Source of the DNA: Gammaproteobacteria bacterium
Lineage (GTDB): Bacteria; Pseudomonadota; Gammaproteobacteria; Ga0077536
Direction: 5' to 3'
Length of the DNA stretch: 61,878 nucleotides
NCBI GenBank assembly: GCA_020845935.1
Contig: JADLEV010000052.1
Location: 1-61,878 of the forward strand
Shown here piece by piece: positions 1-36,115 of this stretch (position 1 is its first letter; every line of letters starts with the position of its first letter). A program made the translations under genes and the position numbers. A model generated the notes under the pieces. It saw only the letters and a list, made by a program, of their open reading frames with translations. It did no database searches and had not been told where the DNA came from.

Positions 1-782
1 AGTTTCTGGTCGATCACTCGCGCCGGACCGCCGCCATCGCACGGGTCATCGCCCGGCTCGAAGGCGTGGATGCGCTGCTGCCGGTCGTCATCGCGCTGTT
101 TCACGATGCCGGGAAATTCAACGACGGTGCCTACCACGCGGACGGGATTGCGGAGGAGGAACATGCCGCGATCCACGCGGGCCGCATGCTGGCCGCCGCC
201 GGCATGGTGCCGGACGAGATCGCCGTGGTGCAGGAATCGCTGCGCGCGCTCTATGACGAGCGCCACCCCTGCGTCGGCCCGAGCCGCATCGTGCAGGACG
301 CCGATCGGCTGGACAAGCTGGGGGCGCTCGGTGTCGGCGCATTCTTCACCAAGGCGACGCTACGCGGCCGCGGCCTGGTCGACGCGCTGCTGCAAACGGC
401 GAGCCGCGAGCTGACCTATGCGCTGGCGGCGCCGCGCGCGATGTTCACCGCGAGCGGCCGGCGCCTCGCCACGGAGCGCGCGGCCAGGACCGTGGCATAT
501 TTCGACGAGCTGTTCGCCGATCTGGAGCATTGGGGCATCGCGCAACTGGAACGGCGCACGCTGGCGCTTGCCGGCGAATTCCGCACCCGTGACGGCACCG
601 CGATCGATACCCTCGAGGTGACTCTGGTGCTGCCGCGCGCCTGCCCGGCGTGTGGCGGGGTGCTGGATCTGGCGCACCGGCGCGAGCGCGGCATCAAGTG
701 CGAGAAACTGGTGGCGAGGATTTCGTGCCCGGCGTGCGGGCATGAGCACGGGACCGCCTTTTGTCTGCCGGTGCTGGCCTGA
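1..782 (+). CDS. HD-domain phosphohydrolase with C-terminal zinc-ribbon-like motifs (5' partial)
   Basis: Frame 3 is open from the window edge (FLVDHSRRTAAIARVI... precedes the track Met at 66). HD-superfamily motifs ALFHDAGK and DADRLDKLGA. C-terminal CPACGG...CPACGH pair. Confidence 0.6.
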   Translation, partial: FLVDHSRRTAAIARVIARLEGVDALLPVVIALFHDAGKFNDGAYHADGIAEEEHAAIHAGRMLAAAGMVPDEIAVVQESLRALYDERHPCVGPSRIVQDADRLDKLGALGVGAFFTKATLRGRGLVDALLQTASRELTYALAAPRAMFTASGRRLATERAARTVAYFDELFADLEHWGIAQLERRTLALAGEFRTRDGTAIDTLEVTLVLPRACPACGGVLDLAHRRERGIKCEKLVARISCPACGHEHGTAFCLPVLA

Positions 783-1155: not shown

Positions 1156-1169
1156 TTGATCGGTGTCAA
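1156..1169 (+). promoter_or_regulatory. Candidate FNR/CRP-family operator
   Basis: TTGATcggtGTCAA matches the TTGAT-N4-ATCAA consensus at 9 of 10 positions. It lies in the only AT-rich stretch (about 1085-1200) of the 514-nt spacer, ~135 nt upstream of the first cluster gene. Confidence 0.3.
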
Positions 1170-1301: not shown

Positions 1302-2453
1302 GTGGAAACACTCGTTCCTCTGAAAGAAATCGCCGACGCGATCAAGCTGAACGGCGGCGTCACCGCCGACCTGTGCTACCAGTGCGGCACCTGCGACGTC
1401 GTCTGCCCGTGGAATCGGGTGAGCAGGTTCAGCATGCGCAAGATCGTCCGTCAGGCGGCGCTCGGTCTCACCGAGATCGAGAGCGAGGACATCTGGCGCT
1501 GCACCACCTGCGGCACCTGCCCGCAGCGCTGCCCGCGCGGCGTCAATCAGATCGAACTCGGCCGCTCGTTGCGCCGCATCGCGACCGAGTATGGCGTCTT
1601 TCCGGACTCGGTGACGCCGATCGTCACCGTCGCCGGCAGCCTGATGAGCGAAGGCAACCCGTTCGATCTGGCGCGCGGCAAACGCGCCGAGTGGGCCCAG
1701 GGGCTCGGGGTCAGGCAGTTCAAGGAAGGCATGGAGATCCTGTACCTGCCGGGTTGTTACCTCGCCTACGATCCGCGAATGAAGAAGGTAGCGGTCGCGA
1801 CCGCGAAGATCCTGAACGCCGCCGGCGTCGATTACGGCATCCTTGGCGACAAGGAAAGCTGCTGCGGCGAGAGCATCCGCAAGGCCGGCAACGAGGAAGC
1901 GTTCCGCCACCTCGCCAAGTCGAACATCAAGAACCTGATTGAGGCCGGCGTGAAGAAGATCCTGGTCTCGTCGCCGCACTGTTATCACACCTACAAGAAT
2001 GAATACCCCGAATTCGGCGTGCACTTCGAGATCGTGCACATCTCGCAGTACCTGAAGCAGTTGATGCAGGAGGGCCGGTTGCAGCCAAAGCAGGAATACG
2101 TCCGCAAGATCACCTACCACGATCCGTGCTATCTCGGCCGGCACAACGGCGTGTTCGACGCGCCGCGCGAGGTGTTGAACAAGGTGCTCGGCACCGAGCT
2201 GAACGAACTGGCCGAACGGCGCGAAAACAGCTTCTGCTGCGGCGGTGGCGGTGGCCGCATCTGGATGGAGACGCCGAAGGAGGAACGCTTCTCCGACGTG
2301 CGGCTGCGCCAGGCCGTCGATCTCGGCGCCGAGGTGCTGGTGACGGCGTGCCCGTATTGCATCACCAACTTCACGGATTCGAGCCTGCGCCTGGATCAGG
2401 GCCAGGCGATCGAGGTCAAGGACATCACCGAAGTCGTCGCGGAAAGTCTCTAG
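1302..2453 (+). CDS. HdrD-like Fe-S protein (2x[4Fe-4S] plus two CCG domains); BamD-like
   Basis: CYQCGTCDVVCP and CTTCGTCPQRCP ferredoxin motifs, then two CCG-type motifs (SCCGES; FCCGGGGG...ACPYC). GGAG lies 6 nt before GTG 1302; the track's TTG 1296 is an alternative start. Confidence 0.8.
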   Translation: METLVPLKEIADAIKLNGGVTADLCYQCGTCDVVCPWNRVSRFSMRKIVRQAALGLTEIESEDIWRCTTCGTCPQRCPRGVNQIELGRSLRRIATEYGVFPDSVTPIVTVAGSLMSEGNPFDLARGKRAEWAQGLGVRQFKEGMEILYLPGCYLAYDPRMKKVAVATAKILNAAGVDYGILGDKESCCGESIRKAGNEEAFRHLAKSNIKNLIEAGVKKILVSSPHCYHTYKNEYPEFGVHFEIVHISQYLKQLMQEGRLQPKQEYVRKITYHDPCYLGRHNGVFDAPREVLNKVLGTELNELAERRENSFCCGGGGGRIWMETPKEERFSDVRLRQAVDLGAEVLVTACPYCITNFTDSSLRLDQGQAIEVKDITEVVAESL

Positions 2454-2461
2454 GAGGTACC

Positions 2462-5400
2462 GTGAGCACCACAGCGATCGAACAATTGCAGTTGAGCCGC
2501 CAGAACAGCGATCGGCTCGGCGACGTCATGGTCGTCGGTGCCGGCATCAGCGGCATCCAGGCTGCGCTGGATCTGGCCGAAACCGGCTTTCGCGTCTATC
2601 TGGTCGAGAAGGCCCCGGCGATCGGCGGCAAGATGTCACAGCTCGACAAGACCTTCCCGTCGAACGACTGCTCGATGTGCATCGAGTCGCCGAAGTTCAT
2701 CGAGTGCAGCCGCCATCCGAACATCGAGATCCTGACCACCACCGAGATCCTGCGGGTCGAGGAATCGGACGAGGGCGACTTCCAGATCACGCTGAACCGA
2801 AAGCCGCGCTACGTCATCGAGGATCGCTGCACCGGTTGCACCACCTGCGTCGAGTTCTGTCCGGCGCAGATGCCGGACCCGTACAACCAGCGCCTCAACC
2901 TGACCAAGGCGATCCACATCCAGTTCTCGCAGGCGACGCCGCTGGTCACCTACATCGATCCGGAGCACTGCTTCTATCTCAAGGACGAGCGCTGCCAGAT
3001 CTGCGTCGGCGTCTGCAAACACAACGCCATCGATCTGCACCAGAAGCCGCAACGCCGTACCGTCACGGTCGGCTCGGTGGTGCTGGCGCCGGGCTTCGAG
3101 ACCTTCGACCCCGCGCTGCGCGGCGACTTTGGCTATGGCCGGTTCAAGAACGTCGTCACCAGCCTCGAATTCGAACGGATGATCTCGGCCACCGGCCCGG
3201 GCGCCGGCCACGTGCTGCGGCCGTCCGACAGCAAGCATCCACACCGCATCGCCTGGGTGCAGTGCGTCGGCTCGCGCCAGGTGATCCCCGGCGGCAACAG
3301 CTATTGCTCGTCGGTCTGCTGCTCGTACACCCAGAAGCAGGTGATCCTCGCCAAGGATCATCTGCCCGAGCTGAACGCGACCGTGTTCCACAACGACATC
3401 CGCGCCTTCAGCAAGGACTTCGAACGCTACTACCAGCGCGCCTCGGGGCTGTCCGACGTGCGCTTCATCCGCAGCTATACCTCGGTCGGCCGTGAGTTGC
3501 CGGGGTCGGACAACGTCACCATCCGCTACGCGACCGACGAGGATGGGGTCAAGGAGGAGGAGTTCGATCTGGTGGTGCTGTCGGTGGGTCTGAATCCGCC
3601 GAAGGATGCCAAGGATCTCGCCGCCAAGTTCGGCATCGAGCTGAACGCGCATGGCTTCTGCAAGACCAATCCGATGAATCCGATCGAGACGACCCGTCCG
3701 GGCGTCTTCGCCAGTGGCGCGTTCTTTGGGCCGGCGGACATTCCGGAATCGGTCTGGTCCGCGAGCGGCGCGAGCGCGCTGTGCGGCACCGTGCTCGCGG
3801 CGCGACGCGGCAAGCTGAGCCGTGAGCGTGAATATCCCGAAGAGCGCGATGTCTCGAAGGAAGAGCCGAAGGTCGGCGTATTCGTCTGCCATTGCGGCGC
3901 GAACATTGGCCGCGTCGTCAACGTGCCTTCGGTCGTCGAATACGCCAAGGGCCTGAAGAACGTGGTGCACGCGCAGGAAAGCCTGTTCGCCTGCTCGACC
4001 GACAACGCCCAGCAGATCTCGGACGTGATCCGCGAGAAGGGGCTGAACCGCGTCGTCATCGCGGCCTGCTCACCGCGCACGCTGGAGCCGCTGTTCCGCG
4101 ACACCGTGCGCGAGGGCGGCATCAATCAGTACTTCATGGACATGGCCAACATCCGCGAGCACTGTTCGTGGGTGCATTCGAAGGAGAAGGACGCGGCGAC
4201 GCAGAAGGCGAAGGAGATCGTCAGCATGTCGGTCGCTCGCACCAGCCTGCTCGAACCGCTGAGCGAGATCGAGCTGCCGATCAACAAGTCGGTGCTGATC
4301 ATCGGCGGCGGTGTCGCCGGCATGAACGCGGCGCTGACGATGGCGAGCCAGGGCTTCGAGGTCAGCCTGGTCGAGAAGGACAAGGATCTCGGCGGCATGG
4401 CGCGCCGCATCCACTACACGCTGGAAGGCACCGACGTGCAGGCCTACGTCAAGGAGATGTCGCAGCAGGTCTACCGCAATCCGCAGATCCGCGTGATCAC
4501 CGAAGCGGTAATCGAGGAAGTCTCCGGCTACGTCGGCAACTTCGTCACCAAGGTGCGGGCGCAGAAGCGGCTGCGCGAGGTCAAGCACGGCGCGGCGATC
4601 ATCGCCATCGGCGCCCAGGAATACCAACCGACCGAACACCTGTACGGCCTGCACACCGGCGTCCTGACCCAGCTCGAACTCGAAGGCCGCATCGCCGCGA
4701 GTGAACCGGCGGTGACCGGCGCCGAAGGCGTGGTGATGATCCAATGCGTCGGCTGCCGCAACAAGGAGCGCAACTACTGCGCCCGCGTCTGTTGCAGTCA
4801 GGCGATCAAGAACGCGCTGAAACTGAAGGAGCAGAAGCCCGAGCGGGAGGTGACCATCGTCTACCGCGACATGCGCACCTATGGCTATCGCGAGAACTAT
4901 TACCGCGAGGCGGCGAGCAAGGGCGTCCGCTTCGTCCGCTTCACGCCGGAGCACGAACCGGTCGTGGCGCCGATCCGGGAAGGCGGCAAGGAACAGCTGC
5001 GCGTGACGGTGTTCGATCCGATCCTGGGCCAGCCGCTCGCGCTCGATACCGATCTGGTCGCGCTGTCCGCTGCGGTCGTGCCGTCGGCGTCGGCGCAGCA
5101 GATCTCGCGCCTGTTCAAGGTGCCGCTGAGTCCCGATGGCTTCTTCCTCGAAGCGCACGTCAAGCTTCGGCCGGTCGATTTTTCCGCCGAGGGCGTGTTC
5201 CTTTGCGGCACGGCGCACTATCCGAAACACATCGGCGAGACCATCAGTCAGTCCTGCGGTGCCGCCGGCCGCGCCATCGCGACGTTGTCACAAGATGCCG
5301 TGATCGCCACTGGCGCCATCTGCGACGTCAAGGAAGATGCCTGTGTCGCCTGCGGCGCCTGCATCTCGGCCTGCGCCTACGACGCGATCGATTTCGTTGA

Positions 5401-5542
5401 AACGGCGCATGGCAAGAAGGCGCACGTCAACCCGATCCTGTGCAAGGGCGACGGGCTGTGCAATTCGAAGTGCCCGACCAAGGCCATCTTCCTGAACCAT
5501 TTCACCGACGAAGAAATCTTCGCTCAGATCGACGCGGCATAG
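2462..5542 (+). CDS. Large HdrA-like flavoprotein, two tandem HdrA-type FAD modules plus ferredoxin domains (~1026 aa); BamE-like
   Basis: Two dinucleotide-binding motifs (VVGAGISGIQAALDLAE; IIGGGVAGMNAALTMAS). HdrA hallmarks DCSMCI and VFVCHCGANIG. Several CxxCxxCxxxCP motifs. AGGAGG lies 5 nt upstream of GTG 2462; the track start 2126 overlaps the previous gene and is rejected. Confidence 0.8.
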   Translation: MSTTAIEQLQLSRQNSDRLGDVMVVGAGISGIQAALDLAETGFRVYLVEKAPAIGGKMSQLDKTFPSNDCSMCIESPKFIECSRHPNIEILTTTEILRVEESDEGDFQITLNRKPRYVIEDRCTGCTTCVEFCPAQMPDPYNQRLNLTKAIHIQFSQATPLVTYIDPEHCFYLKDERCQICVGVCKHNAIDLHQKPQRRTVTVGSVVLAPGFETFDPALRGDFGYGRFKNVVTSLEFERMISATGPGAGHVLRPSDSKHPHRIAWVQCVGSRQVIPGGNSYCSSVCCSYTQKQVILAKDHLPELNATVFHNDIRAFSKDFERYYQRASGLSDVRFIRSYTSVGRELPGSDNVTIRYATDEDGVKEEEFDLVVLSVGLNPPKDAKDLAAKFGIELNAHGFCKTNPMNPIETTRPGVFASGAFFGPADIPESVWSASGASALCGTVLAARRGKLSREREYPEERDVSKEEPKVGVFVCHCGANIGRVVNVPSVVEYAKGLKNVVHAQESLFACSTDNAQQISDVIREKGLNRVVIAACSPRTLEPLFRDTVREGGINQYFMDMANIREHCSWVHSKEKDAATQKAKEIVSMSVARTSLLEPLSEIELPINKSVLIIGGGVAGMNAALTMASQGFEVSLVEKDKDLGGMARRIHYTLEGTDVQAYVKEMSQQVYRNPQIRVITEAVIEEVSGYVGNFVTKVRAQKRLREVKHGAAIIAIGAQEYQPTEHLYGLHTGVLTQLELEGRIAASEPAVTGAEGVVMIQCVGCRNKERNYCARVCCSQAIKNALKLKEQKPEREVTIVYRDMRTYGYRENYYREAASKGVRFVRFTPEHEPVVAPIREGGKEQLRVTVFDPILGQPLALDTDLVALSAAVVPSASAQQISRLFKVPLSPDGFFLEAHVKLRPVDFSAEGVFLCGTAHYPKHIGETISQSCGAAGRAIATLSQDAVIATGAICDVKEDACVACGACISACAYDAIDFVETAHGKKAHVNPILCKGDGLCNSKCPTKAIFLNHFTDEEIFAQIDAA

Positions 5543-5555
5543 GCTGGAACGAACC

Positions 5556-6323
5556 ATGGCGATACCCGAAAACTTCCGACCCAAAATCCTGGGCTTCCTC
5601 TGCAACTGGTGCAGCTACGCCGGCGCCGATCTCTGCGGCACGTCGCGCTATCAGTATCCGCCGAGCCTGCGCATCATCCGCATGATGTGCTCGGGCCGGA
5701 TGGATCTCGACTTCGTGCTGCGCGCGCTCAGCAACGGTAACGACGGCGTCTTCATCGGCGGCTGCTGGCTCGGCGAATGCCATTACGTCACCGAAGGCAA
5801 TTACGACGCGCTGTCGGTGCTGCATCTGGCAAAGAAGCTGCTGGCAAAGGTCGGCATCAATCCGGCGCGCATCCGGCTGGAATGGGTGTCAGCGTCGCAG
5901 GGCAACCGCTTCGCCGAGGTCGTCACCGAATTCACCAACGAACTGACCACACTCGGCCCGCTCGGTGAAGGCGAGGGCATCGATCCGGCGACGCTGAAGC
6001 TGAAGCTCGATGCCGTGGCGCGGCTATTGCCGTACATCAAGCTGGTCGAGCGTGAAAAGATCCGCGTGCGCTTCGAGAACAAGGAGGAATACGCCGAGTT
6101 CTTCGACAGCCCCGCGCTGAACGCGCTGTTCGACACGACCATCGCCGACAAGCTCGCGATCAGCCAGATCCTCGGCTTGCTGCACGAGCGCCAGCGCTCG
6201 ACCCGCGAAATCGCCGATACGCTCAACATGCCGATATCGGAAGTCACCGAACGGCTCAAGGATTCGTCGCGGCAGAAGCTGGTCCGCTTCGACGAAGCCG
6301 AAAAGTGCTACGCCCTCGCCTGA
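5556..6323 (+). CDS. MvhD/FlpD-like (methyl-viologen-reducing hydrogenase delta subunit family); BamF-like
   Basis: ILGFLCNWCSYAGADLCG...RMMCSGR...IGGCWLGECHY is the typical MvhD cysteine pattern. Starts 14 nt after the HdrA-like stop. Confidence 0.8.
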   Translation: MAIPENFRPKILGFLCNWCSYAGADLCGTSRYQYPPSLRIIRMMCSGRMDLDFVLRALSNGNDGVFIGGCWLGECHYVTEGNYDALSVLHLAKKLLAKVGINPARIRLEWVSASQGNRFAEVVTEFTNELTTLGPLGEGEGIDPATLKLKLDAVARLLPYIKLVEREKIRVRFENKEEYAEFFDSPALNALFDTTIADKLAISQILGLLHERQRSTREIADTLNMPISEVTERLKDSSRQKLVRFDEAEKCYALA

Positions 6324-6334
6324 GCGCAAACACC

Positions 6335-6790
6335 ATGACGGATACGACCAAAGTCCAACAAATCATCGATCGTCACGATGCGCGCGAAGGCGCGTTGATC
6401 GAGATCCTGCTCGACATCCAGCACGAGTTTCACTGGTTGCCGAGCGAAGCCCTGGAACTCGTCAGCGATCGGCTCAACGTGCCGATGGGCCGGATCCGGC
6501 ATACCGCGACCTTCTACAAGGCGTTCAGCCTGGTGCCGAAGGGCCGCCACGAGATCAACGTCTGCATGGGCACCGCCTGCCATGTCCGTGGCGCGCAACG
6601 GGTGCTCGAAGTAATCCAGAACACCACCGGCCTGATGCCCGGCGAAACCGACGCGGAGATGAAATACAGCCTCGACACCGTCAACTGCATCGGCTGCTGC
6701 GCGCTCGGTCCGGTCATCGAGATCGACAAGGAGCAGCACGGCAAGCTGGTGCCTGGCAAGACCGCTGCGTTGTTGAAGAGATATGAATAG
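6335..6790 (+). CDS. NuoE/HoxE-like [2Fe-2S] thioredoxin-like subunit; BamG-like
   Basis: NVCMGTACHVRG...CIGCCALGP is the NuoE-type 2Fe-2S motif. ATG 6335 gives the typical ~150-aa size. Confidence 0.85.
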   Translation: MTDTTKVQQIIDRHDAREGALIEILLDIQHEFHWLPSEALELVSDRLNVPMGRIRHTATFYKAFSLVPKGRHEINVCMGTACHVRGAQRVLEVIQNTTGLMPGETDAEMKYSLDTVNCIGCCALGPVIEIDKEQHGKLVPGKTAALLKRYE

Positions 6791-8708
6791 CATGCTGAAT
6801 ACCTCCGCCGATCTCGAACGCCATCGCGCCGAACTGCTCGCCCGGCGCGATCCCGACAAACATTGCATCGCCGTCTGCGCGGGCGCCGGGTGCCTCGCGA
6901 GCGGCGCGACCAAATTGATCGCCGCGCTCGACGCCGAGATCGACAGGCAGGGTCTGGGTGACAAGGTCGAGGTCAAGGGAACCGGCTGCCCCGGCTTTTG
7001 CGAGCGCGGCCCGGTGGTCGTGATCGAACCGAACGAGACGACCTATCTCGACGTCAAGGCCAAGGACGCGACCGAGATCATCAACAAGACGATCAAGAAC
7101 GGCGTGCTGGTCGATCGGCTGCTGTATGCCGATGCCGACGAAGCGCGCATTGCGCGCGGCGCCGATATCCCGTTCTATCGCAACCAGCAGCGCAACATCA
7201 TCGGCAACAACATCAAGCTCGATCCCAAGCGGATCGAGGATTACCTCGCGATCGGCGGTTATGGCGCGCTGGCGAAGGCGCTGACGACGATGACTGCCGC
7301 CATGGTGGTCGATGAAGTGAAGCGATCCGGCCTGCGTGGCCGTGGCGGCGGCGGCTTCCCGACCGGCATCAAGTGGGACGCCGCACGCAATGCGCCCGGC
7401 GACGAGAAGTACGTGATCGTCAATGCCGACGAAGGCGATCCGGGCGCGTTCATGGATCGTGCCGTGCTCGAAGGCAATCCGCATTCGGTGATCGAGGGTC
7501 TGGTCATCGGCGGCTTTGCCATCGGCGCGCGCCACGGTTACGTCTACGTGCGCCAGGAATATCCGCTCGCGCTCGAAAACATCACCATCGCGATCCGTCA
7601 GGCCGAGGAACTCGGTCTGCTCGGCACGAACATTCTCGGTTCTGGTTTCGACTTCAAGATCACGGTGCAACGCGGTGCCGGCGCCTTCGTCTGCGGCGAG
7701 GAAACCGCGCTGCTGCTGTCGCTCGAAGGCAAGCCGGGCGAGCCGCGCGCGCGCCCGCCCTATCCGGCGACCAAGGGCCTCTGGGGCAAGCCAAGCAACA
7801 TCAACAACGTCGAGACCTGGGCAAACATTCCGCTGATCATCGCCAACGGCGCCGCCTGGTTCAGCGAGCTGGGCACCGATCGCAGCAAGGGCACGAAGAT
7901 CTTCTCGCTGGTCGGCAAGATCAAGAACACCGGCCTCGTCGAAGTGCCGATGGGCGTGACGCTGCGCAACATCATCTACGACATCGGTGGCGGCATCCCG
8001 AACGGCAAGAAGTTCAAGGCGGTGCAGACCGGCGGCCCGGCCGGCGGCTGCATTCCCGAGTCGCACCTCGACACGCCGGTCGACTTCGACGAGCTGATCA
8101 AGGCCGGCGCGATCATGGGCTCCGGCGGCATGATCGTGATGGACGAAGACACCTGCATGGTCGATGTCGCGCGCTACTTCCTGAACTTCCTGTCGCAGGA
8201 ATCCTGCGGCAAGTGCTCGCCGTGCCGTGAAGGCATCAAGCAGATGCACCGCATCGTCAAGAACATCACCGAGGGCCACGGCAAGGAAGGTGATCTGGAG
8301 ACGCTGGAAGAACTGGCGGTCGCCGCGAATGCGTCGCTGTGCGCGCTCGGCCGCAGCGCGCCGAACCCGGTGCTGTCGACGCTGCGGCACTTCCGCGCAG
8401 AGTACGAAGCGCATATCCGCGACAAGCAATGTCCGGCGCTGTCCTGCAAGAGCTTGATCTCGTACTACATCAATCCGGATGCCTGCACCGCGTGCCTGCT
8501 GTGCTTCAAGAACTGCGCCTCGCAGGCCATCATCGGTGATCGCGATCACATCCACGTTATCGATCAATCGAAGTGCGATCGCTGCCGCACCTGCTACGAG
8601 GTCTGCCCGCCGAAATACAATGCCGTGGTCCGGGTCTCCGGCCGCACGGTGCCGGATCCGTTGCCGGAGGAACAACGCCTCCGCGTCCGTACCGGCGCGG
8701 CGAGCTGA
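6783..8708 (+). CDS. NuoF/HoxF-like NAD(P)H- and FMN-binding subunit with N-terminal 2Fe-2S and C-terminal 2x[4Fe-4S] extensions; BamH-like
   Basis: GLRGRGGGGFPTGIKW (FMN site) and ESCGKCSPCREG (N3 cluster). N-terminal CAGAGC...CPGFCERGP. C-terminal CTACLLCFKNC and CDRCRTCYEVCP. Start 6783 overlaps the NuoE-like stop; ATG 6792 is an alternative. Confidence 0.85.
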   Translation: MNSMLNTSADLERHRAELLARRDPDKHCIAVCAGAGCLASGATKLIAALDAEIDRQGLGDKVEVKGTGCPGFCERGPVVVIEPNETTYLDVKAKDATEIINKTIKNGVLVDRLLYADADEARIARGADIPFYRNQQRNIIGNNIKLDPKRIEDYLAIGGYGALAKALTTMTAAMVVDEVKRSGLRGRGGGGFPTGIKWDAARNAPGDEKYVIVNADEGDPGAFMDRAVLEGNPHSVIEGLVIGGFAIGARHGYVYVRQEYPLALENITIAIRQAEELGLLGTNILGSGFDFKITVQRGAGAFVCGEETALLLSLEGKPGEPRARPPYPATKGLWGKPSNINNVETWANIPLIIANGAAWFSELGTDRSKGTKIFSLVGKIKNTGLVEVPMGVTLRNIIYDIGGGIPNGKKFKAVQTGGPAGGCIPESHLDTPVDFDELIKAGAIMGSGGMIVMDEDTCMVDVARYFLNFLSQESCGKCSPCREGIKQMHRIVKNITEGHGKEGDLETLEELAVAANASLCALGRSAPNPVLSTLRHFRAEYEAHIRDKQCPALSCKSLISYYINPDACTACLLCFKNCASQAIIGDRDHIHVIDQSKCDRCRTCYEVCPPKYNAVVRVSGRTVPDPLPEEQRLRVRTGAAS

Positions 8709-8721
8709 CGAAGCGACTGCC

Positions 8722-9357
8722 ATGACCGACATCACGTTGACCATCGACGGCCAGACCGTCACCGCGAGCGAAGGTGCGACCGTGCTCGACGCCGCGCGCG
8801 CCGCCGGCATCGCCATTCCGACCGTTTGCCATCACGAGAAGCTGGAGCCGTTCGGCGGCTGTCGGCTGTGCGTGGTCGAGGCCGAAGCGGGTGGCCGCAC
8901 CAGCCTCGCCGCCTCCTGCATCTTCCCGGTCCAGCAGGGTCTGAACGTGCGCACGCGCACGCCGCAGATCGAGCAGGTGCGCAAGGTGCTGACCGAGCAG
9001 CTGCTGGCGCACGCGCCGGAATCCGAGGTGCTGCTGAAGCTCGCCGAGGACTACCACGCCAACAAGGATCGCTTTCCGCGTGAGCCCTCGTTCTGCATTT
9101 TGTGCGGCCTGTGCGTGCGCTATTGCGCTGAGGTGAAGCAGCTCAACGCGGTCAGCTTCGTCGACCGCGGTCCGACCCGCGAGATTAGCTTCGATCCTGA
9201 GATCGCGAACCGCGAGTGCTGGGAGTGCAAGGAGTGCTTCCCGCTGTGCCCGACTTCGGCCCTGCAGGCGGCCTATGTATTGATGAAATCACTGACGGCA
9301 TTTTCCCCATCGGCGCACTGCGCGGCCGCGACCCCGGCCAAACAGGCGACAGCGTAG
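8722..9357 (+). CDS. NuoG N-terminal-like [2Fe-2S]/[4Fe-4S] ferredoxin (~211 aa); BamI-like
   Basis: MTDITLTIDGQTV...CHHEKLEPFGGCRLCVVE plant-type 2Fe-2S motif, then CILCGLCVRYC and CWECKECFPLCP. Internal ATG 8722 chosen; the track start 8479 overlaps the NuoF-like gene. Confidence 0.75.
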   Translation: MTDITLTIDGQTVTASEGATVLDAARAAGIAIPTVCHHEKLEPFGGCRLCVVEAEAGGRTSLAASCIFPVQQGLNVRTRTPQIEQVRKVLTEQLLAHAPESEVLLKLAEDYHANKDRFPREPSFCILCGLCVRYCAEVKQLNAVSFVDRGPTREISFDPEIANRECWECKECFPLCPTSALQAAYVLMKSLTAFSPSAHCAAATPAKQATA

Positions 9358-9368
9358 AGGCAAGAACC

Positions 9369-11315
9369 ATGAGATACGCGGACACTGGATTCGATCTGGA
9401 AATCGACTTGACGCGCGGTAGCATCGAAAAGGTGCCGAACGATCCGCGCGATACCGAACTGTTCCTCGGCGGGCAGGGCATCGCCGCCAAGATCCTCTTC
9501 GAGCGCGTGCCGCCGGAGACCGATCCCTTTTCCGAGGACAACCTGCTGATCTTCAGCGCCGGTCTGCTGCACGGCACGCCGGCGCCGGCGGCGAACCGCA
9601 CCGCGGTGAACACGCTGTCGCCGCAGACTGGTCTGATGTCGCACTCGCTGTTCGGCGGCTTCTTCGGGCCGGAGCTGAAATACGCCGGTTACGATCGCAT
9701 CATCATCCGCGGCAGGTCGCCGACGCTGGTGTACCTTTACATCCACAACGACACGGTCGAAATCCGCGATGCCGCCCATCTGCATGGCATGGGCTGCACC
9801 GAGACCGGCGATGTGCTGAAGGCGGAGCTGCATGATCAAGGCTTCCAGGTCGCGGCAATTGGCCTCGCCGGTGAAAACCGGGTGTTCATGGCCTCGATCG
9901 ATCACAACTACGCCAGCGCCGCGCGCGGTGTCGGCGTGATCATGGGCGACAAGAGACTGAAGGCGATCGCGGTGCGCGGCACCAAGGATGTCAACATCGC
10001 CAAGGCCGCCGAGCTGTTCCCGATCACGCACGAGATCCATCAGAAGATGGCGAAGAGCGACGGCTGCGGCGACTGGATGGCGGTCGACGAGGACGACAGC
10101 TTCCATCACAACCACTTCGCCTGGGGCAACGCGCGCACGCGGCGCAAGGATTTCTGGAGCGACGAGTTACAGGAGCGCTGGACCCGGCTCAAGTACGACC
10201 ACATGGATCGGCAGACGGGCTGCTACAACTGCCCGAAGAAATGCCGCAACGTGATCAGCTGGCCCGGCAAGCGCCGCTTCGGCTACAAGTGCTTCGGCAA
10301 GGACACTTATCACATGGCGGCGTTCCTGGAACTCGATTTCAGCTACGAGATCCTGGGCGACGCGCAGGAGTACGGTGTCGATTCATACTCGACGCCGCAG
10401 GTGATGGCGTTCGCGCTGGAGCTGCTCGAGGACGGCATCCTGAGCCGGGACGATTTCCCCGGCATGCCGGACGACAAGCGCGGCCAGTTCTTCTGGCTGC
10501 TGGAGAAGATCGTCCGCCGCGAAGGCATCGGCGACATCCTCGCCGATGGCGTCTCCGCCGCGGCCAAACGCATCGGCAAGGGCGCCGAGAAATACGATCA
10601 CAACACCACCAAGAAGTTCGAACAGTTGCCGATCAAGCTCGGCAAGCTGAACCCGGCCTACTTCCTGATGATCGCGACCGGCGAGAAGATGAGCATCACC
10701 CAGATCGAAGGCTCGTTCCCGCAGGACCCGCTGCCGACCAAGGAGCAGCGCGAGGAGTTCGTTGCGAAGTGGGAGGCGGTGCCGGACGAGAAGTTCAAGC
10801 AGTACTTCCTCGAATGGGAGAAGCGCAACGAGATCGCCGACGAGCGGACCTGCGAGATCGTCGACTGGAACGAGGCGATGCACTACATCGATGACGCCAT
10901 CGGCACCTGCGGTTTCGTCTCCTCGTTCCGCGGCCAGTTCGGCGGCAGCGTGCCTTACCACATGAACAACCTGCCGCAGATCATCTCGCTCGCGAGCGGC
11001 ATGGAAGTCACCAAGGAAAGTCTCTGGAAGAACTTTCAGCGCATCCGCACGCTGGTGCGCGCGGTCAACGTCCGCCGCGGCCTGCGCCGCGAGCACGAGC
11101 GGCCGCCGGAAGATCACTGGGCGGTGCGCGACGAGCAGTACGAGCAGGCGCTGCTCAGCATGTATTACAAGTTCAAGGGCTGGAACGAAGAAGGCATCCC
11201 GACGCGCGACACGCTGGAGCGCCTCGACCTCGGTTGGGTCGCGGACGATCTCGAAGCGCGGGGCATTCTGGAACCAGCCAGCACCGTGACCGCCCGCACG
11301 GGCACCGCGGGTTAA
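9369..11315 (+). CDS. Tungsten/molybdopterin aldehyde:ferredoxin oxidoreductase (AOR) family protein, ~648 aa; BamB-like
   Basis: AOR-family N-terminus MRYADTGFDLEIDLTRGSIEKV...FLGGQGIAAKIL. AOR-type cluster motif GCYNCPKKC. It is longer than classical ~600-aa AORs. Followed by its own ferredoxin gene. Confidence 0.8.
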   Translation: MRYADTGFDLEIDLTRGSIEKVPNDPRDTELFLGGQGIAAKILFERVPPETDPFSEDNLLIFSAGLLHGTPAPAANRTAVNTLSPQTGLMSHSLFGGFFGPELKYAGYDRIIIRGRSPTLVYLYIHNDTVEIRDAAHLHGMGCTETGDVLKAELHDQGFQVAAIGLAGENRVFMASIDHNYASAARGVGVIMGDKRLKAIAVRGTKDVNIAKAAELFPITHEIHQKMAKSDGCGDWMAVDEDDSFHHNHFAWGNARTRRKDFWSDELQERWTRLKYDHMDRQTGCYNCPKKCRNVISWPGKRRFGYKCFGKDTYHMAAFLELDFSYEILGDAQEYGVDSYSTPQVMAFALELLEDGILSRDDFPGMPDDKRGQFFWLLEKIVRREGIGDILADGVSAAAKRIGKGAEKYDHNTTKKFEQLPIKLGKLNPAYFLMIATGEKMSITQIEGSFPQDPLPTKEQREEFVAKWEAVPDEKFKQYFLEWEKRNEIADERTCEIVDWNEAMHYIDDAIGTCGFVSSFRGQFGGSVPYHMNNLPQIISLASGMEVTKESLWKNFQRIRTLVRAVNVRRGLRREHERPPEDHWAVRDEQYEQALLSMYYKFKGWNEEGIPTRDTLERLDLGWVADDLEARGILEPASTVTARTGTAG

Positions 11316-11332
11316 CACGAGAGGCAGCAGAA

Positions 11333-11875
11333 ATGGCGACCAAGACAGCAACCAAACTCGTCAAGGAAATCCGGGTAGACATCAGCAAGTGCACCGGCTG
11401 CCGCGCCTGCGAGATGGCGTGCTCGGCGTACCATGCCAAGCCGCGCTACAGCAGCATCAACCCGGCGCGCTCGCGCATCCGCGTCGTCAGCAGCGAACAC
11501 AATGATGAATACGTGCCGATCCGCTCGACCGACTACACGCCGTCGGAATGCAACGGCCGGCGCACCTACGTCATCGAGGGCAAGGAATACAGCGATTGCA
11601 GCTTCTGCGGCTCCCCCTGCCCGTCACGCGATCTGTTCTTCGAACCGGACTCAGGCTTGCCGCTGAAGTGCGACATGTGCGAGAGCATCCCGGAGATCAT
11701 TCCGATGTGCGTGCAGGCCTGCGGCGAAAGCGCGCTCACCTACCACAAGTACGATGTCATGGTCGACGCCAAGGACCAGGAGCGCCGCGGCGGCATCGAG
11801 ATCGGCCTCGAGAATCTCGTCAACCAGTATGGCGTCGACGCGATCCTCGAAGGCCTGAAGCGGATGCAGAAGTAG
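11333..11875 (+). CDS. Poly-[4Fe-4S] ferredoxin subunit partnered with the AOR-family protein; BamC-like
   Basis: CTGCRACEMACS, CSFCGSPCP and CDMCE...CVQACG cysteine clusters. ~180 aa. Starts 17 nt after the AOR stop. Confidence 0.7.
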   Translation: MATKTATKLVKEIRVDISKCTGCRACEMACSAYHAKPRYSSINPARSRIRVVSSEHNDEYVPIRSTDYTPSECNGRRTYVIEGKEYSDCSFCGSPCPSRDLFFEPDSGLPLKCDMCESIPEIIPMCVQACGESALTYHKYDVMVDAKDQERRGGIEIGLENLVNQYGVDAILEGLKRMQK

Positions 11876-12184
11876 CCGCGCAGATTACGACGCCAGATAA
11901 GTCCAGGAGGGACGTGTTCAGAGCGCGTTTGGTGTCGCTCGTTTGTTACATTCCGGACGGGGATTTGCAGTGAGGATGCGCCTGCCGAACTGCTATCGCG
12001 ACGCGGCCAGGGATCATGTGATGGAATTTCTCGGCAGCACGGGCGGATGCGATCAATAGGCCAATGGCACTTCACCGTTCCGGTAGGTCGCACCTCCGCT
12101 TCGGCCAGAAACGTGCACCGCTACCGGTCTCCCCTCTTCAGGAACAAGGTGAAGGAACCGGTGCTGAAGAACCGCGAGCTGAAC

Positions 12185-12201
12185 GGGGCAAGGACTGCCC
12201 C
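12185..12201 (-). terminator. Stem-loop just downstream of the ptsI stop (weak terminator candidate)
   Basis: GGGGCA-aggac-TGCCCC, a 6-bp GC stem 10 nt after the stop. No U-tract, so it may be only a stabilising hairpin. Confidence 0.25.
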
Positions 12202-12211
12202 AAAGGCCGCG

Positions 12212-13963
12212 CTACTCCGCGGCAACGGCCAGACCGGTGTTGATCTCGCGCAGCAGGGTCCGTTGCTCATGCTGGCTGCCGGCGGCAAGGAATGATTCCG
12301 CCAGCGGCTCGATGAGCTGCAGCTCGGTGGTGTTGATGATGTGCTTGATTGCCAGCAGGTTGCGCGGGTGGACACTGAATTCGCGCAGGCCCAGCGCCAG
12401 CAGCAGCCGCGTGTAGCGTGCATCACCAGCCATCTCGCCGCACATCGCGACCGGTTTGCCGGCGCGACGGCCGGCGGCCAGGGTCATCGCGATCAGGCGC
12501 AGCACGGCCGGATGCAACGGGTCGTACAGATAGCTGACCCCTTCATTGACGCGATCGATCGCCAGTGTGTACTGGATCAGATCGTTGGTGCCGAGCGACA
12601 CGAAATCGAGCTGCGCGGCGAAGGCATCGGCGCACAGCGCGGCAGCCGGCACCTCGACCATGCCACCGATCGGCATGGTTGCGTCGAAGGCGATGCCCAG
12701 CCGCCGGAATTGGTCACGGATGTCATCGATCAGCGCCAGCACCTGCGCCAGCTCATCCAGATTCGACAGCATCGGGATCATCAGTCGTGTGTTGCCGAAT
12801 GCCGAGGCGCGGATGATCGCCCGCAACTGCGGCAGGAACAGCCCGGGCTCGCGCAGGCACAGCCGCACCGCGCGCAGGCCGAGCGCCGGATTCGCTTCGC
12901 CCTGCTGCGTCTGGCCGGGCAGCGCCTTCTCGCCGCCGACGTCCAGCGTGCGCATCGTGACCGGCATGCCTTGCATGTCCTTGATCAGGTCGCGATAAGT
13001 CGTGAACAACTCCTCCTCGCCGGGGCGATCGGCACGGTTCAGGAACAGGTATTCGGTGCGATACAGGCCGATGCCTTCGGCGCCGACATCGCGCGCCAGC
13101 ACGAAGTCGAGCGGCAGTTCGACATTCGCGCGCAGCGTCACGTCGCACCGATCGATCGTCCGCGCCGGCTGCGCCCGCAGCGCATCCAGTTGGCGCAGAC
13201 AGACGCTGCGTTCGTCCTGCCGGCGGCGGTAGTGCGCGAGTACGCGCTCATCGGGGTCGACGATGACGACACCAGCGCCGCCATCAACGATGATCAGTTC
13301 ATCCTCGCCGATCAGCTGCCGGCCGCCATGCAGGCCGACGATTCCCGGAATGCCGAGGCTGCGCGCCAGGATCGCGGTATGCGAGGTCGGGCCACCGTAT
13401 TGGATGGCGAACGCGGCGATGCCGTGATGTTGCATCAACACGGTGTCGGCCGGGCTCAGATCATCGGCGAGCAAGATGTAGCCGCGCAGCCGGCTGTCGG
13501 GCTGCTCATGCCGCATCGGGCCGTGATTCAGCAGGATCCGCTGCACCCGATTGACCACGTGTTCGACGTCGTCCTTGCGTGTGCGCAGGTAGGCATCGTC
13601 CATCTCGTCGAACACCGCGACCAGTGCATCGCGTTGCAGCTTCAGCGCCCACTCGGCGTTGCAGCGGCGTTCGCGGATGATGCGAACCGGCTCGCTGGTC
13701 AGCGTCACATCCTCCAGCATCAGCAGATGGGTGTCGATGAACGCGGCGATGCCCGGCGCCGCCGCCCGCGGAATGTGATCGCGCACGGCGCGAAGCTGTA
13801 GCCGCGCCAGCGCCAGAGCGTCCTGGAAGCGCCGGATCTCGGCTTCGATCCCGGCCGCCGCAATGGCGTACTCGGGGATCTCGAACTGACTGCGCTCGAC
13901 CAGGTGGACGCGGCCGATGGCGATGCCATCGGAGACGCCGGCACCGTGGATGGCGATGGTCAC
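12212..13963 (-). CDS. ptsI: Phosphoenolpyruvate-protein phosphotransferase (PTS enzyme I)
   Basis: GGPTSHTAILARSLGIP active-site His motif and a PEP-utilising C-terminal domain. The GTG start overlaps the HPr stop (GTGA). The upstream part of the 870-aa track ORF is not coding. Confidence 0.85.
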   Translation of the reverse strand: MTIAIHGAGVSDGIAIGRVHLVERSQFEIPEYAIAAAGIEAEIRRFQDALALARLQLRAVRDHIPRAAAPGIAAFIDTHLLMLEDVTLTSEPVRIIRERRCNAEWALKLQRDALVAVFDEMDDAYLRTRKDDVEHVVNRVQRILLNHGPMRHEQPDSRLRGYILLADDLSPADTVLMQHHGIAAFAIQYGGPTSHTAILARSLGIPGIVGLHGGRQLIGEDELIIVDGGAGVVIVDPDERVLAHYRRRQDERSVCLRQLDALRAQPARTIDRCDVTLRANVELPLDFVLARDVGAEGIGLYRTEYLFLNRADRPGEEELFTTYRDLIKDMQGMPVTMRTLDVGGEKALPGQTQQGEANPALGLRAVRLCLREPGLFLPQLRAIIRASAFGNTRLMIPMLSNLDELAQVLALIDDIRDQFRRLGIAFDATMPIGGMVEVPAAALCADAFAAQLDFVSLGTNDLIQYTLAIDRVNEGVSYLYDPLHPAVLRLIAMTLAAGRRAGKPVAMCGEMAGDARYTRLLLALGLREFSVHPRNLLAIKHIINTTELQLIEPLAESFLAAGSQHEQRTLLREINTGLAVAAE

Positions 13964-14229
13964 TCCGGTTCTCCGAACTTGCCGTTGATCAGATCGGTCA
14001 AGGCGATGATGGCGTTTTCCTCGTCGGGACCATCGGCACGGATCGTGACCGCGCTGCCCCGCGCGGCGGCGAGCATCATCACGCCCATGATGCTCTTGGC
14101 GTTGACCTGCTTGCCGTCCCGCGCCACGGTAATCTCGCTGGTGAAGCCGGCCGAGGTCTGCACCAGCTTCGCCGCGGCGCGCGCGTGCAGGCCCAGTTTG
14201 TTGATGATGCCAATCGTTCGTTCGATCAT
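13960..14229 (-). CDS. ptsH: HPr/NPr phosphocarrier protein
   Basis: MIERTIGIINKLGLHARAAAKLV (His15 context) and NAKSIMGVMML (Ser46 context). 89 aa from internal ATG 14229. Confidence 0.85.
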   Translation of the reverse strand: MIERTIGIINKLGLHARAAAKLVQTSAGFTSEITVARDGKQVNAKSIMGVMMLAAARGSAVTIRADGPDEENAIIALTDLINGKFGEPE

Positions 14230-14379
14230 GATGCCGGTGATTATTGCAAAACCCCGGTGCTTGCCCAAGGTCGTTGGAAGGTAAGCACTCTTGTGCTCGA
14301 TGCGGCGGAGCCCGGTCCGGGCACGTACCGGCCCCGGTGATTCCGAACAGGTCCAGGAGGGACTTATGCGAAGAACAAT

Positions 14380-15261
14380 CTAAAGATCCCGATGCCGCAA
14401 CATGCAGTCGAGGCCCTGCTCCCGCAGCATGGCGGCGACCGCTTCGGCGACATACACCGAGCGGTGTCGGCCACCGGTGCAGCCGAAGGCGATGGTCAGG
14501 TAACTGCGATCGCGCTGGGCGAACCGCGGGATCCAGTCGCGCAGGAATCGGCTGACCGTAGCGATCAATTCCTCGACTTCGGGCGAGTGCGCCAGGAAAT
14601 CGCAGACCGGCGCATCGCGCCCGGTCAGGGGCCGCAGCGCGGGATCCCAGTACGGATTCGGCAGGCAGCGCGCGTCGAATACCAGATCGGCGTCCCGCGG
14701 CAGGCCTTTCTTGTAACCGAACGACAGGATCTGGATCACCATGCTGCCGGGTCGATGCCCGGCGACGCGCACGCCGATCAGCTCGCGCAACTGGTGCACA
14801 TGCAGGTTCGAGGTGTCGATGCACAGATCGGCGCAGGCCTTGATCGGTTCGAGGACCTGCACCTCGCGATCGATGGCCAGCGGCAGCGGGGTGCCGCCGT
14901 CGGACAAGGGATGCCGGCGCCGCGTTTCGCTGAACCGCTGGATCAGCGTCTCGCGCGCTGCCTCGATGAAAATAAGTTCCGGCATCAGCGGCAAATGCCG
15001 CAGTTGCTCCAGCAACGTCGGCAACTCGGTCAGTGCCGCGACCGGGCTGCGCGCGTCGATGCCGATGGCGACCTCGCGATAGTGCGGCAGATCGCTGAAT
15101 GCGATCTCGCGGGCAAAAGTCAGCAACAGGTTGACCGGGAGATTGTCGACGCAGAAGAAGCCGCCATCCTCGAGCGCGTGCAGCACGGTCGACTTGCCGG
15201 CGCCGGACACGCCCGAGACGATGATCAACCGCCGCGTGGCGGGGTTGGCCGGATCAGGCAT
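14380..15261 (-). CDS. rapZ: RNase adapter protein RapZ (YhbJ)
   Basis: LIIVSGVSGAGKSTVLHALEDGGFFCVDNLP Walker A and C-terminal GCTGGRHRSV motif. Overlaps the hprK stop by 8 nt. Confidence 0.9.
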   Translation of the reverse strand: MPDPANPATRRLIIVSGVSGAGKSTVLHALEDGGFFCVDNLPVNLLLTFAREIAFSDLPHYREVAIGIDARSPVAALTELPTLLEQLRHLPLMPELIFIEAARETLIQRFSETRRRHPLSDGGTPLPLAIDREVQVLEPIKACADLCIDTSNLHVHQLRELIGVRVAGHRPGSMVIQILSFGYKKGLPRDADLVFDARCLPNPYWDPALRPLTGRDAPVCDFLAHSPEVEELIATVSRFLRDWIPRFAQRDRSYLTIAFGCTGGRHRSVYVAEAVAAMLREQGLDCMLRHRDL

Positions 15262-16273: not shown

Positions 16274-16292
16274 TGCCGTTGCTCCGGTGCCG

Positions 16293-34344: not shown

Positions 34345-34563
34345 TTCGCCCCGCCGCTACTCGAACCCGATTGTTGGCGCGCAGCTTAGTGTTGTCGATA
34401 CACCTTTGCAATGGGCGCCGCCGACTCAGCGCGAGTGCCTGGTGCTCCAGACAACGTCGCCCGTGTTCTTCGACCGTTCGCCACTTCATGCATATTCCCG
34501 CACGTTTTTTTCGCGCGCGCGCTCGCGCATAATCGCCGCGCCCGTAACGATGGAACTTTGCCC

Positions 34564-34757: not shown

Positions 34758-34894
34758 TCCGACGGACCCCTTTGATCGGTTTGGAATTAACGAATGGCTT
34801 CATTGCGCGCAAGATCCCATATGTTCGGGTTCTGTTTCTCTAACTGATCTTCGAACCACCGCCATCTCCTATCACGAACCAGTACTGCTTCTCT

Positions 34895-36112: not shown

Positions 36113-36115
36113 CAC

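Follow-up and report, generated by a model that had tools for sequence, protein, structure and literature searches.

Contig JADLEV010000052.1 of the Gammaproteobacteria bacterium assembly GCA_020845935.1, analysed here over its whole length of 61,878 nt (hereafter the window), raises the question of whether a gammaproteobacterium with aerobic traits carries the eight-subunit machinery of a class II benzoyl-CoA reductase (BCR), the Bam complex of Geobacter metallireducens, and what such a machine would do there. The products of eight adjoining genes at 1302-11875 very probably form a Bam-type, tungsten-dependent, electron-bifurcating aryl-CoA reductase, which by its architecture is assigned to the class II BCR family. 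It is also likely, though less firmly so, that the enzyme is an anaerobically induced reductase of benzoyl-CoA (or a close aryl-CoA) in a facultative aerobe. Its catalytic subunit is placed outside the Geobacter-type BamB subfamily because the Zn/proton-relay motif of that subfamily is altered. What is noteworthy is the host range, together with three lineage-specific traits: a companion gene (hd), the lack of selenocysteine (Sec) and an FNR-type box.

Gene inventory and the catalytic subunit

The eight genes, all on the + strand, are as follows:

bamD-like, 1302-2453 (+): 383 aa; HdrD/HdrBC-fusion-like, with 2 cubane [4Fe-4S] motifs and two CCG domains
bamE-like, 2462-5542 (+): 1026 aa; fused double HdrA flavoprotein, with a GTG start after AGGAGG
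bamF-like, 5556-6323 (+): 255 aa; long MvhD-type [2Fe-2S] adaptor
bamG-like, 6335-6790 (+): 151 aa; NuoE/HydC-like [2Fe-2S] subunit of thioredoxin fold
bamH-like, 6783-8708 (+): 641 aa; HydB/NuoF-like FMN/NADH subunit
bamI-like, 8722-9357 (+): 211 aa; connector like the NuoG N-terminus and HoxU, [2Fe-2S] + 2x[4Fe-4S]
bamB-like, 9369-11315 (+): 648 aa; catalytic subunit of the aldehyde ferredoxin oxidoreductase (AOR) family, predicted to bind tungsten-bis-metallopterin and [4Fe-4S], window-type clade
bamC-like, 11333-11875 (+): 180 aa; 3x[4Fe-4S] polyferredoxin, 12 Cys

According to the open reading frame (ORF) listing and translation, the spacers between these genes measure 8, 13, 11, -8, 13, 11 and 17 nt, and all eight frames are continuous. 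Translation of bamD probably begins at the GTG at 1302, since its start context, GTGGAAAC, recurs in relatives. An initial annotation of the window, made from the letters and an ORF list, had read here an eight-part Bam inventory in the permuted order D-E-F-G-H-I-B-C, with spacings of -8 to +17 nt and no in-frame TGA, and had proposed HMM searches for each subunit. Order and spacing are reproduced by the ORF coordinates, the inventory is borne out by the ORF listing and by Pfam and NCBIfam searches, which confirmed every domain call, and the two positions at which relatives use Sec are TGC/TGT here. The G+C content is 63-66% across the bam region, and G+C at third codon positions (GC3) is 0.79-0.87 in the eight genes, like that of adjoining housekeeping genes; because both values match the host genome, the bam genes do not look like fresh, unexpressed cargo. 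An ORF at 810-1103 was rejected as a gene, having no Pfam match and no homologue in any related locus.

The AOR-family protein of the locus is, judged by its alignments, BamB and not an aldehyde oxidoreductase. It has AFOR_N and AFOR_C domains (Pfam) and, when searched against all PDB sequences, matches Geobacter metallireducens BamB (4z3w_A) over its full length (E=1.5e-232, 777 bits), whereas the next best match, AOR 1aor, reaches 198 bits and all AOR, FOR and WOR structures lie at or below that score. Its identity to Geobacter BamB is 57.5%, against ~30% for AOR-like outgroups; the grouping with aldehyde-oxidising clades by which the initial annotation would have let its proposal fall was thus not found. 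BamB is set apart from other AOR/WOR members by Cys322 as a protein ligand of tungsten (PMC12096430), a Cys ligand that the others lack, with the exception of YdhV. Cys308 of the window protein aligns with this residue, and in an alignment of 188 BamB-like sequences from related loci the ligand Cys is present in 184/184 BamB-clade sequences and in 0/4 AOR-like outgroups. Additionally, C285/C288/C292/C514 correspond to the [4Fe-4S] cluster ligands (CxxCxxxC...C), and the BamC-like protein matches BamC of the BamBC crystal (4z3w_E) over residues 3-178 (E=1.9e-56). A BamB model computed with AlphaFold2 from 22 aligned sequences had a mean pLDDT of only 54.8 and was set aside as poor; the fold rests on the full-length identity to 4Z3W, which is the stronger evidence.

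Database names give a different impression. Public names of window-type BamB homologues (match list P0004-P0120) are all 'aldehyde ferredoxin oxidoreductase' or 'aldehyde dehydrogenase', the only NCBIfam match of BamB is the AOR model (232 bits, cut-off 868), and neither BamB nor any other Bam subunit attains the cut-off of an NCBIfam model. Owing to these generic names and to the lack of a model at cut-off, annotation pipelines do not recognise class II BCRs.

The BamB-like alignment splits sharply into two clades. Members of the Geobacter-type clade are 72-100% identical to Geobacter BamB and 55-60% to window BamB, whereas those of the window-type clade are 54-60% identical to the former and 68-100% to the latter. 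The active-site loop reads GLGSPQEMKVHDEKWHT in the Geobacter-type clade and G(C/N/V)GDWMAVD-EDDSFHH in the window-type clade, and the window protein has GCGDWMAVDEDDSFHH where Geobacter BamB has SPQEMKVHDEKWH. The Zn/proton-relay residues Glu251, His255, Glu257 and His260 have been called invariant in BamB (PMC12096430). Throughout the window-type clade, the E251/H255/E257/H260 loop is replaced by GDWMAVDEDDSFHH: Glu257 is changed to Asp, His255 to Glu and Glu251 to Ala or Met, and His260 alone is retained. The comparison of active-site residues with the BamB crystal structure that the initial annotation had called for therefore gives a divided answer, in which the tungsten-ligand and cluster Cys are conserved and the relay motif, except His260, is not. 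On this alignment the 'invariant' motif appears to hold in only one of two large BamB clades, and its alteration is the reason for assigning the window protein to the sister, window-type clade; the absence of Sec19 from BamF likewise sets the locus apart from the Geobacter-type subfamily.

Complete B-C-D-E-F-G-H-I clusters exist in each BamB clade. Those of window type occur in Desulfosarcina, Desulforhabdus, Desulfobacula, Desulfatiglandales, Firmicutes and others, and those of Geobacter type in Geobacterales and many Desulfobacterales; the genus Desulfosarcina has both (window-type L036/L038, Geobacter-type L153/L172/L205). Proteomic data on BamB1 of Desulfococcus multivorans were considered as support for the window type and dropped, since the identity of BamB1 to Geobacter BamB, 64%, exceeds the 54-60% of window-type proteins and BamB1 resembles the intermediate L043_75 type.

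Electron-transfer subunits and selenocysteine positions

Residues of BamD to BamI were mapped by motif position and by the numbering of a cryo-EM preprint that describes the Geobacter Bam complex at residue level (10.64898/2026.04.10.717634). The BamD-like protein shows CCG (Pfam, 1.7e-35) and Fer4_8 domains and has 17 Cys (8+5+4), as does Geobacter BamD. Its first CCG domain ends in CYHT, so that the second Cys of the CxxC is gone, and the lost position is T or S in 138/138 relatives, in agreement with the modified distal cluster reported for Geobacter (10.64898/2026.04.10.717634). The BamE-like protein is matched by HdrA2 of NCBIfam (933 bits) and by HdrA of PDB entry 5odc (614 bits), in 3 stretches each, and comprises a bifurcating-FAD unit, a second FAD unit and ferredoxin domains. 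Within it, CSMC 70-73 corresponds to Geobacter Cys59-Cys62, K292 in CCSYTQK to Lys280 at the bifurcating FAD, and Q780 to Gln768 at the non-bifurcating FAD; K292 is invariant in 139/139 relatives and aligns with the Lys of the CCMYAMK motif in HdrA 5odc.

The remaining subunits follow the same pattern. The BamF-like protein has an FlpD domain at residues 11-134 (Pfam, 2e-48), matches MvhD in PDB (153 bits) and carries a C-terminal extension of ~120 aa; its CNWC motif at 16-19 places Cys19 where Geobacter has Sec19. The BamG-like protein is a 2Fe-2S_thioredx protein (Pfam, 7.3e-47; HoxE/NuoE in NCBIfam). The BamH-like protein combines Complex1_51K (1.2e-44) and NADH_4Fe-4S (2.1e-31) domains of Pfam with a HydB-type N-terminal 2Fe-2S_thioredx domain at 21-102 and a C-terminal 2x[4Fe-4S] Fer4 domain at 561-614, and the FMN Asp of Geobacter BamH, Asp219, recurs in ADEGDPG under the identical number. 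The BamI-like protein has Fer2_4 (Pfam, 9.7e-22) and Fer4_7 domains and matches HoxU and the FeFe-hydrogenase N-terminus in NCBIfam. Cys counts of 12 in BamC, 13 in BamI, 5 in BamG and 22 in BamH fit the published cofactor set. Taken from these motifs, the wiring for both confurcation and bifurcation appears intact.

Two codons were compared between proteobacterial and other loci. At position 19 of BamF, TGA is found in 69/86 non-proteobacterial relatives, including all Geobacterales, and Cys in 26/26 proteobacterial loci. At the second Cys of the BamE CSMC motif (codon 73, window ~2678-2680), TGA is found in 62/108 non-proteobacterial relatives (in-frame examples are L187, L190, L204, L208, L211, L214 and others) and Cys in 32/32 proteobacterial ones. 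In Geobacter, this CxxC pair forms a redox-active disulfide beside cluster E3 (10.64898/2026.04.10.717634). The codon usage points to the BamE CxxC as a second, lineage-variable Sec site besides the known one in BamF, and the absence of Sec is, as read from these codons, a lineage-wide trait of proteobacterial bam loci.

Companion gene, upstream box and genomic setting

Two further elements lie upstream of bamD:

hd, 3' part, <1-782 (+): frame 3-782, 259 codons; HD-domain phosphohydrolase with a C-terminal CxxC...CxxC zinc ribbon
FNR-type palindrome TTGATCGGTGTCAA, 1156-1169 (+): candidate operator for induction under anoxia; between hd and bamD, which are 520 nt apart, and ~140 nt before the bamD start

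The hd product has a Pfam HD domain (E=2.6e-8) and measures ~299 aa in relatives. Homologues 60-67% identical to it lie beside bam genes in 20/35 proteobacterial loci (for example, L003:9037-9936 and L125:6001-6777), in 0/45 non-proteobacterial window-type loci and in 0/80 Geobacter-type loci. A GTDB search with hd returned almost only the same lineages of metagenome-assembled genomes (MAGs), with bam genes within 6 kb in 36/44 further hd loci, and in one unrelated MAG (L139) the gene after bamI encodes a homologue of 37% identity. By this pattern of co-occurrence hd qualifies as a ninth conserved gene, a lineage-specific accessory of proteobacterial bam clusters. Among proteins of solved structure, those most similar to it are HD hydrolases of the YedJ/YpgQ type, either nucleotide pyrophosphohydrolases or without an assigned function, with E. 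coli YedJ (3gw7, E=4.5e-9) the closest. One idea is that the protein may act as a cofactor or nucleotide pyrophosphohydrolase that helps to supply the non-nucleotide tungsten-bis-metallopterin, or may be a repair or regulatory factor.

The palindrome in the spacer between hd and bamD is one mismatch from the FNR consensus TTGAT-N4-ATCAA and sits in an AT-richer stretch. Among relatives, sites with at most one mismatch occur in 6/10 of the hd-bamD or upstream-of-bamD spacers and sites with at most two in 8/10, many of them of the form TTGAY-N4-NTCAAGG. Their density in these spacers is 1.9/kb, compared with 0.066/kb in a background of 961 kb from the same loci (~29-fold), and shuffled spacers gave a mean of 0.03 with a site and a maximum of 2. 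From this conservation we infer control of bam by a regulator of the FNR/Anr family, i.e., anoxic expression, which would suit an oxygen-labile tungsten/Fe-S enzyme in a facultative aerobe. For class I BCR operons, control by FNR-family regulators (AadR, AcpR) is known. A second FNR-like box lies at 50739-50752, inside a GGDEF ORF. Scans of 700-1400 and 11800-12300 for sigma-70 promoters and intrinsic terminators found none, and an Rfam scan of the whole window found no riboswitch (e.g., Moco) and one tRNA only.

Among GTDB genomes, the BamB proteins closest to that of the window share 80-84% identity with it. They are encoded in MAGs of Burkholderiales, Sterolibacterium, Sulfuritalea, Rhodocyclaceae, Xanthobacteraceae, Bradyrhizobium, Rhodospirillaceae and one Gammaproteobacteria bin, and in one isolate, Ramlibacter lithotrophicus RBP-1. 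Still closer proteins, 96% and 94% identical, come from metagenomes and retain the I-B-C order. Five proteobacterial layouts were seen:

D-E-F-G-H-I-B-C, as in the window: L002, L006, L007, L011, L015, L030, L032/L098, L065, L097
canonical BCDEFGHI: L017, L019, L031
divergent split C-B-I-H-G <- hd -> D-E-F: L104, L109
B-C, hd, then I-H-G-F-E on the opposite strand: Sterolibacterium and Sulfuritalea
Geobacter-type b-C-D-E-F-G divergent to hd and window-type B-C: Ramlibacter and many Burkholderiales

Hence the permuted order is a trait of the proteobacterial lineage and is not unique to the window. The AspS protein of the window is at most 67% identical to anything in GTDB, its nearest relatives being from Gammaproteobacteria MAGs. 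As BamB is 80-84% identical across classes, compared with at most 67% for AspS, the figures indicate that the bam module has spread laterally among Proteobacteria.

The fifth layout is an observation in its own right. In Burkholderiales, one bamDEFG(HI) set adjoins Geobacter-type bamBC, and hd and window-type bamBC lie divergent to it (L003, L009, L012, L014, L021, L044/L125 of Ramlibacter lithotrophicus, L105, L108, L117 and L118, and further L121, L123, L124, L128 and L134). In the Geobacter complex, two BamBC modules are bound per DEFGHI protomer (10.64898/2026.04.10.717634). By analogy, two different catalytic BamBC modules may share one bifurcating core in these Burkholderiales.

Neighbouring genes of some relatives bear on the substrate. 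In L002, whose BamB (84%) is the closest in GTDB and whose bam genes are ordered as in the window, the strand that carries bamC continues with genes for an XDH-family enzyme of three subunits (7356-12783; FAD, 2Fe-2S and Mo subunits) and then for an aryl-acid CoA ligase; the Mo subunit is best matched by the 4-hydroxybenzoyl-CoA reductase alpha model (736 bits, compared with 543 bits for XdhA). In L010 (12731-16440), an HcrCA-like fusion (877 bits) and an HcrB-like gene stand between bamBC and bamIHGFE. Because 4-hydroxybenzoyl-CoA reductase makes benzoyl-CoA, these Hcr-like genes lend circumstantial support to benzoyl-CoA as the substrate. Other relatives have unrelated flanks around the bam cluster.

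In the window itself, bamC converges on ptsI, after which come ptsH, an EIIA gene, rapZ, hprK, ptsN, hpf, rpoN, lptBA and kdsD, and further along tol-pal, ruvCAB, yebC, nadA, nrtR, aspS, uvrD, prfA, prmC and hemA. The gammaproteobacterial context and aerobic markers noted in the initial annotation withstood closer inspection, the former through this synteny and the nearest AspS proteins (67%). As to the latter, PobA scores above the equivalog cut-off (TIGR02360, 650 vs 538.7 bits), the gene for a dihaem cytochrome c4-like protein with two CxxCH (52624-53295) lies between dsbA and engB, in the dsbA-cc4-engB order of Gammaproteobacteria, and 49226-49813 encodes a monohaem c-type cytochrome. The sole cofactor-related gene on the contig is moeB (55587-56348).

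Several side observations concern the rest of the contig. The rpoN cluster (12212-16757, - strand) holds a full nitrogen phosphotransferase system, in which rpoN-hpf-ptsN is immediately followed by hprK, rapZ, an EIIA gene, ptsH and ptsI. The longest ORF there, 12212-14824 (-), is a read-through artefact, the true ptsI beginning near 13960. A + strand ORF at 12341-13801 proposed by a GC3-based gene caller was rejected, as the real gene there is ptsI on the - strand. A low-GC stretch at 34400-38000 (58-59%), between nrtR/nadA and an ABC transporter operon, contains an IS3-family transposase (36597-37688, -) and, judged from translation, an apparent C-terminal fragment of another transposase (36116-36586, -). 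A tRNA-Arg(CCG) at 49874-49950 (-) opens a second lower-GC block (~59%, 49874-56350) with a GGDEF protein (50078-51853, -), dsbA, dihaem cytochrome c4, engB, moeB and a bacterioferritin-like ORF (54510-54989) recognised from its translation only.

Function and comparison with known systems

If the subunits work as their Geobacter counterparts, NADH and reduced ferredoxin would enter at BamGH, a HydBC-like confurcating module with FMN near Asp219, and electrons would pass through BamI and the long MvhD-like BamF (with Cys19 for Sec) to the bifurcating FAD of BamE (Lys292, CSMC 70-73). The low-potential electron would then travel from the ferredoxin domain of BamE over the three BamC clusters to the [4Fe-4S] cluster and the predicted tungsten-bis-metallopterin of BamB (Cys308), where the aromatic ring of benzoyl-CoA or a close aryl-CoA analogue would be reduced to the dienoyl-CoA, with His246 (the equivalent of His260) as the likely proton donor. 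The high-potential electron would leave via the HdrD-like BamD to an acceptor linked to electron-transfer flavoprotein (ETF) or quinone. Transcription would probably be switched on under anoxia by an FNR-family regulator bound to the 1156-1169 box.

A minority possibility, unlikely but the most serious of the alternatives, is that the same machine reduces another substrate, such as a substituted benzoyl-CoA, a heteroaromatic CoA ester or a related low-potential compound. In its favour, the active-site loop differs from that of Geobacter (E251 lost, H255 to E, E257 to D, ~11 residues shorter), and the presence of both BamBC types in the genus Desulfosarcina and even in one locus (Burkholderiales L044, L003, L009 and others) suggests a division of labour; the lack of benzoyl-CoA pathway genes in the window fits it too. 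Yet Firmicutes, Dehalococcoidia and others have only window-type BamB in the full clusters of the loci fetched, His260, the tungsten-ligand Cys and 57.5% overall identity are retained, and the Hcr-like enzyme and aryl-CoA ligase beside the closest relative's cluster point to a supply of benzoyl-CoA. Much less probable is an oxidative, aromatising direction, in which a cyclic dienoyl-CoA (e.g., from cyclohexanecarboxylate) would be turned into benzoyl-CoA for degradation by other routes. The Geobacter enzyme is routinely assayed in reverse, with dienoyl-CoA electrons passing to ETF (10.64898/2026.04.10.717634), and the host has oxygen-dependent aromatic enzymes such as PobA; but the full confurcation/bifurcation apparatus, sensible only for uphill reduction, has been kept, the FNR-type box points to anoxic expression, and an oxygen-labile tungsten/Fe-S enzyme is an unlikely feeder of an aerobic pathway.

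We give still less credence to a horizontally acquired cluster that is non-functional or decaying in an aerobe. Lateral spread is suggested by the near uniformity of BamB across alpha-, beta- and gammaproteobacterial MAGs when set against AspS, and the contig lacks pathway partners, whereas decay is hard to reconcile with eight intact frames, host-like GC3, invariant catalytic and cluster residues, a conserved accessory gene and operator, and the I-B-C order kept by relatives at 94-96% identity. The least credible alternative, an aldehyde:ferredoxin oxidoreductase of AOR/WOR type with an unusual electron-transfer module, draws on the database names of homologues (P0008, P0021, P0026 and others) and on the sole NCBIfam match, which falls far short of its cut-off; it is effectively refuted by the margin of the BamB match over every AOR, FOR and WOR structure, by the tungsten-ligand Cys, which AOR sensu stricto lacks, having no protein ligand to tungsten, and by the co-encoding of all seven Bam partners.

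Against the preferred reading, an anoxically expressed benzoyl-CoA reductase, stand several points that have to be set in the balance. Class II BCRs have been assigned to strict anaerobes and class I to facultative ones (PMC12096430; 2025-2026 primary papers). The 62-kb contig contains no dch/had/oah, benzoate-CoA ligase, ETF, 2-oxoglutarate:ferredoxin oxidoreductase (KGOR) or tungstate transporter genes. The window-type loop has lost relay residues and is ~11 residues shorter than that of Geobacter type, and for the Hcr-like genes beside bam in relatives the scores (736 and 877 bits) stay under the equivalog threshold of 994.55 bits. Within the window alone the FNR-type box is not significant, with 2 sites against 0.78 expected and 17% of shuffles reaching 2. 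Finally, no measured activity in the accessible literature could be linked unambiguously to the window-type clade, the crystallised enzyme being of the other clade, and this makes the substrate the main uncertainty; the caution that the initial annotation had expressed on this point was justified, since BamB belongs to a distinct clade in which the Zn/proton-relay motif is lost save for His260.

A gammaproteobacterium that has PobA and cytochrome c4 thus carries, amid its core genes, a complete and apparently functional class II system, and the same module (hd, Cys for Sec, FNR-type box) recurs in dozens of alpha- and betaproteobacterial MAGs from groundwater, soil and lakes and in one isolate. 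Surveys based on annotation or on Geobacter-type bamB tools may miss the anaerobic aromatic-degradation potential of such hosts, because the genes are annotated only as aldehyde oxidoreductases. A tentative proposal, which we consider possible rather than probable, is that the hd-linked, selenium-free, FNR-controlled complex is an adaptation of class II to oxygen-exposed, energy-rich Proteobacteria, Ramlibacter lithotrophicus among them. If true, it would overturn the rule that class II belongs to strict and class I to facultative anaerobes, the HD/zinc-ribbon protein would represent a new factor in maturation, repair or regulation, and the changed loop at the active site might confer another aryl-CoA specificity. 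A selenium-free version in a culturable and more genetically tractable host would also be a useful route to express and dissect the 1-MDa bifurcating enzyme, and window-type bam could be studied directly in R. lithotrophicus RBP-1, which was obtained from an aerobic co-culture that oxidises Mn(II) and can use succinate or H2 for growth.

Among known systems, Bam[(BC)2DEFGHI]2 of Geobacter metallireducens (4Z3W-4Z40) has the same eight subunits with the same domain architecture in each. The window shares with it the tungsten-ligand Cys, the [4Fe-4S] ligands, BamH Asp219, the Lys, CxxC and Gln of BamE, the long BamF, the modified distal cluster of BamD and Cys counts that fit the cofactors. It differs in that BamB is 57.5% identical and of the sister clade, with the relay loop replaced save for His260, in the Cys at Sec19 of BamF and in the order DEFGHIBC instead of BCDEFGHI. 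Moreover, the window has an upstream HD-domain gene and an FNR-type box, lacks bamOP (ETF) and pathway genes nearby, and comes from a gammaproteobacterium with PobA and cytochrome c4 rather than from a strict anaerobe. Closer in BamB are the window-type clusters of sulfate reducers and Firmicutes (Desulfosarcina variabilis L038, Desulforhabdus sp. TSK L042 and a Thermincola MAG, L059), which belong to the same clade (69-77% identity) and have the same GDWMAVDEDDSFHH loop and all eight genes; in contrast to the window, they keep the canonical B-C-D...I order, lack hd, belong to strict anaerobes and have Sec in BamF in most cases and in BamE in many, where the window has Cys.

The modules of HdrABC-MvhAGD and of the HydABC bifurcating hydrogenases are homologous to BamDEF and BamGHI, respectively (HdrA 614, MvhD 153 bits), but the window has no hydrogenase or heterodisulfide-reducing partner, its HdrA is duplicated and fused, and the output is an AOR-family enzyme predicted to contain tungsten. 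For benzoyl-CoA reduction in facultative anaerobes such as this host, the expected enzyme would be class I BCR (BcrABCD/BzdNOPQ), which is ATP-driven and of an unrelated protein family; none of its kind is encoded in the window. Full-text literature searches found no paper describing bam clusters in Burkholderiales or Gammaproteobacteria, and Georgfuchsia toluolica, considered as a betaproteobacterium with class II BCR, was dropped because the paper shows class I. The closest counterparts are the proteobacterial MAGs and Ramlibacter lithotrophicus RBP-1 (L002, L006, L015, L032/L098, L097, L017, L044), whose BamB is 80-84% identical and which share hd, Cys at both Sec sites and the FNR-type box. 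Several have the identical arrangement of hd followed by D-E-F-G-H-I-B-C, whereas others vary in layout, some sharing one DEFG(HI) set between Geobacter-type and window-type BC, and some carry the Hcr-like and CoA-ligase genes that the window lacks.

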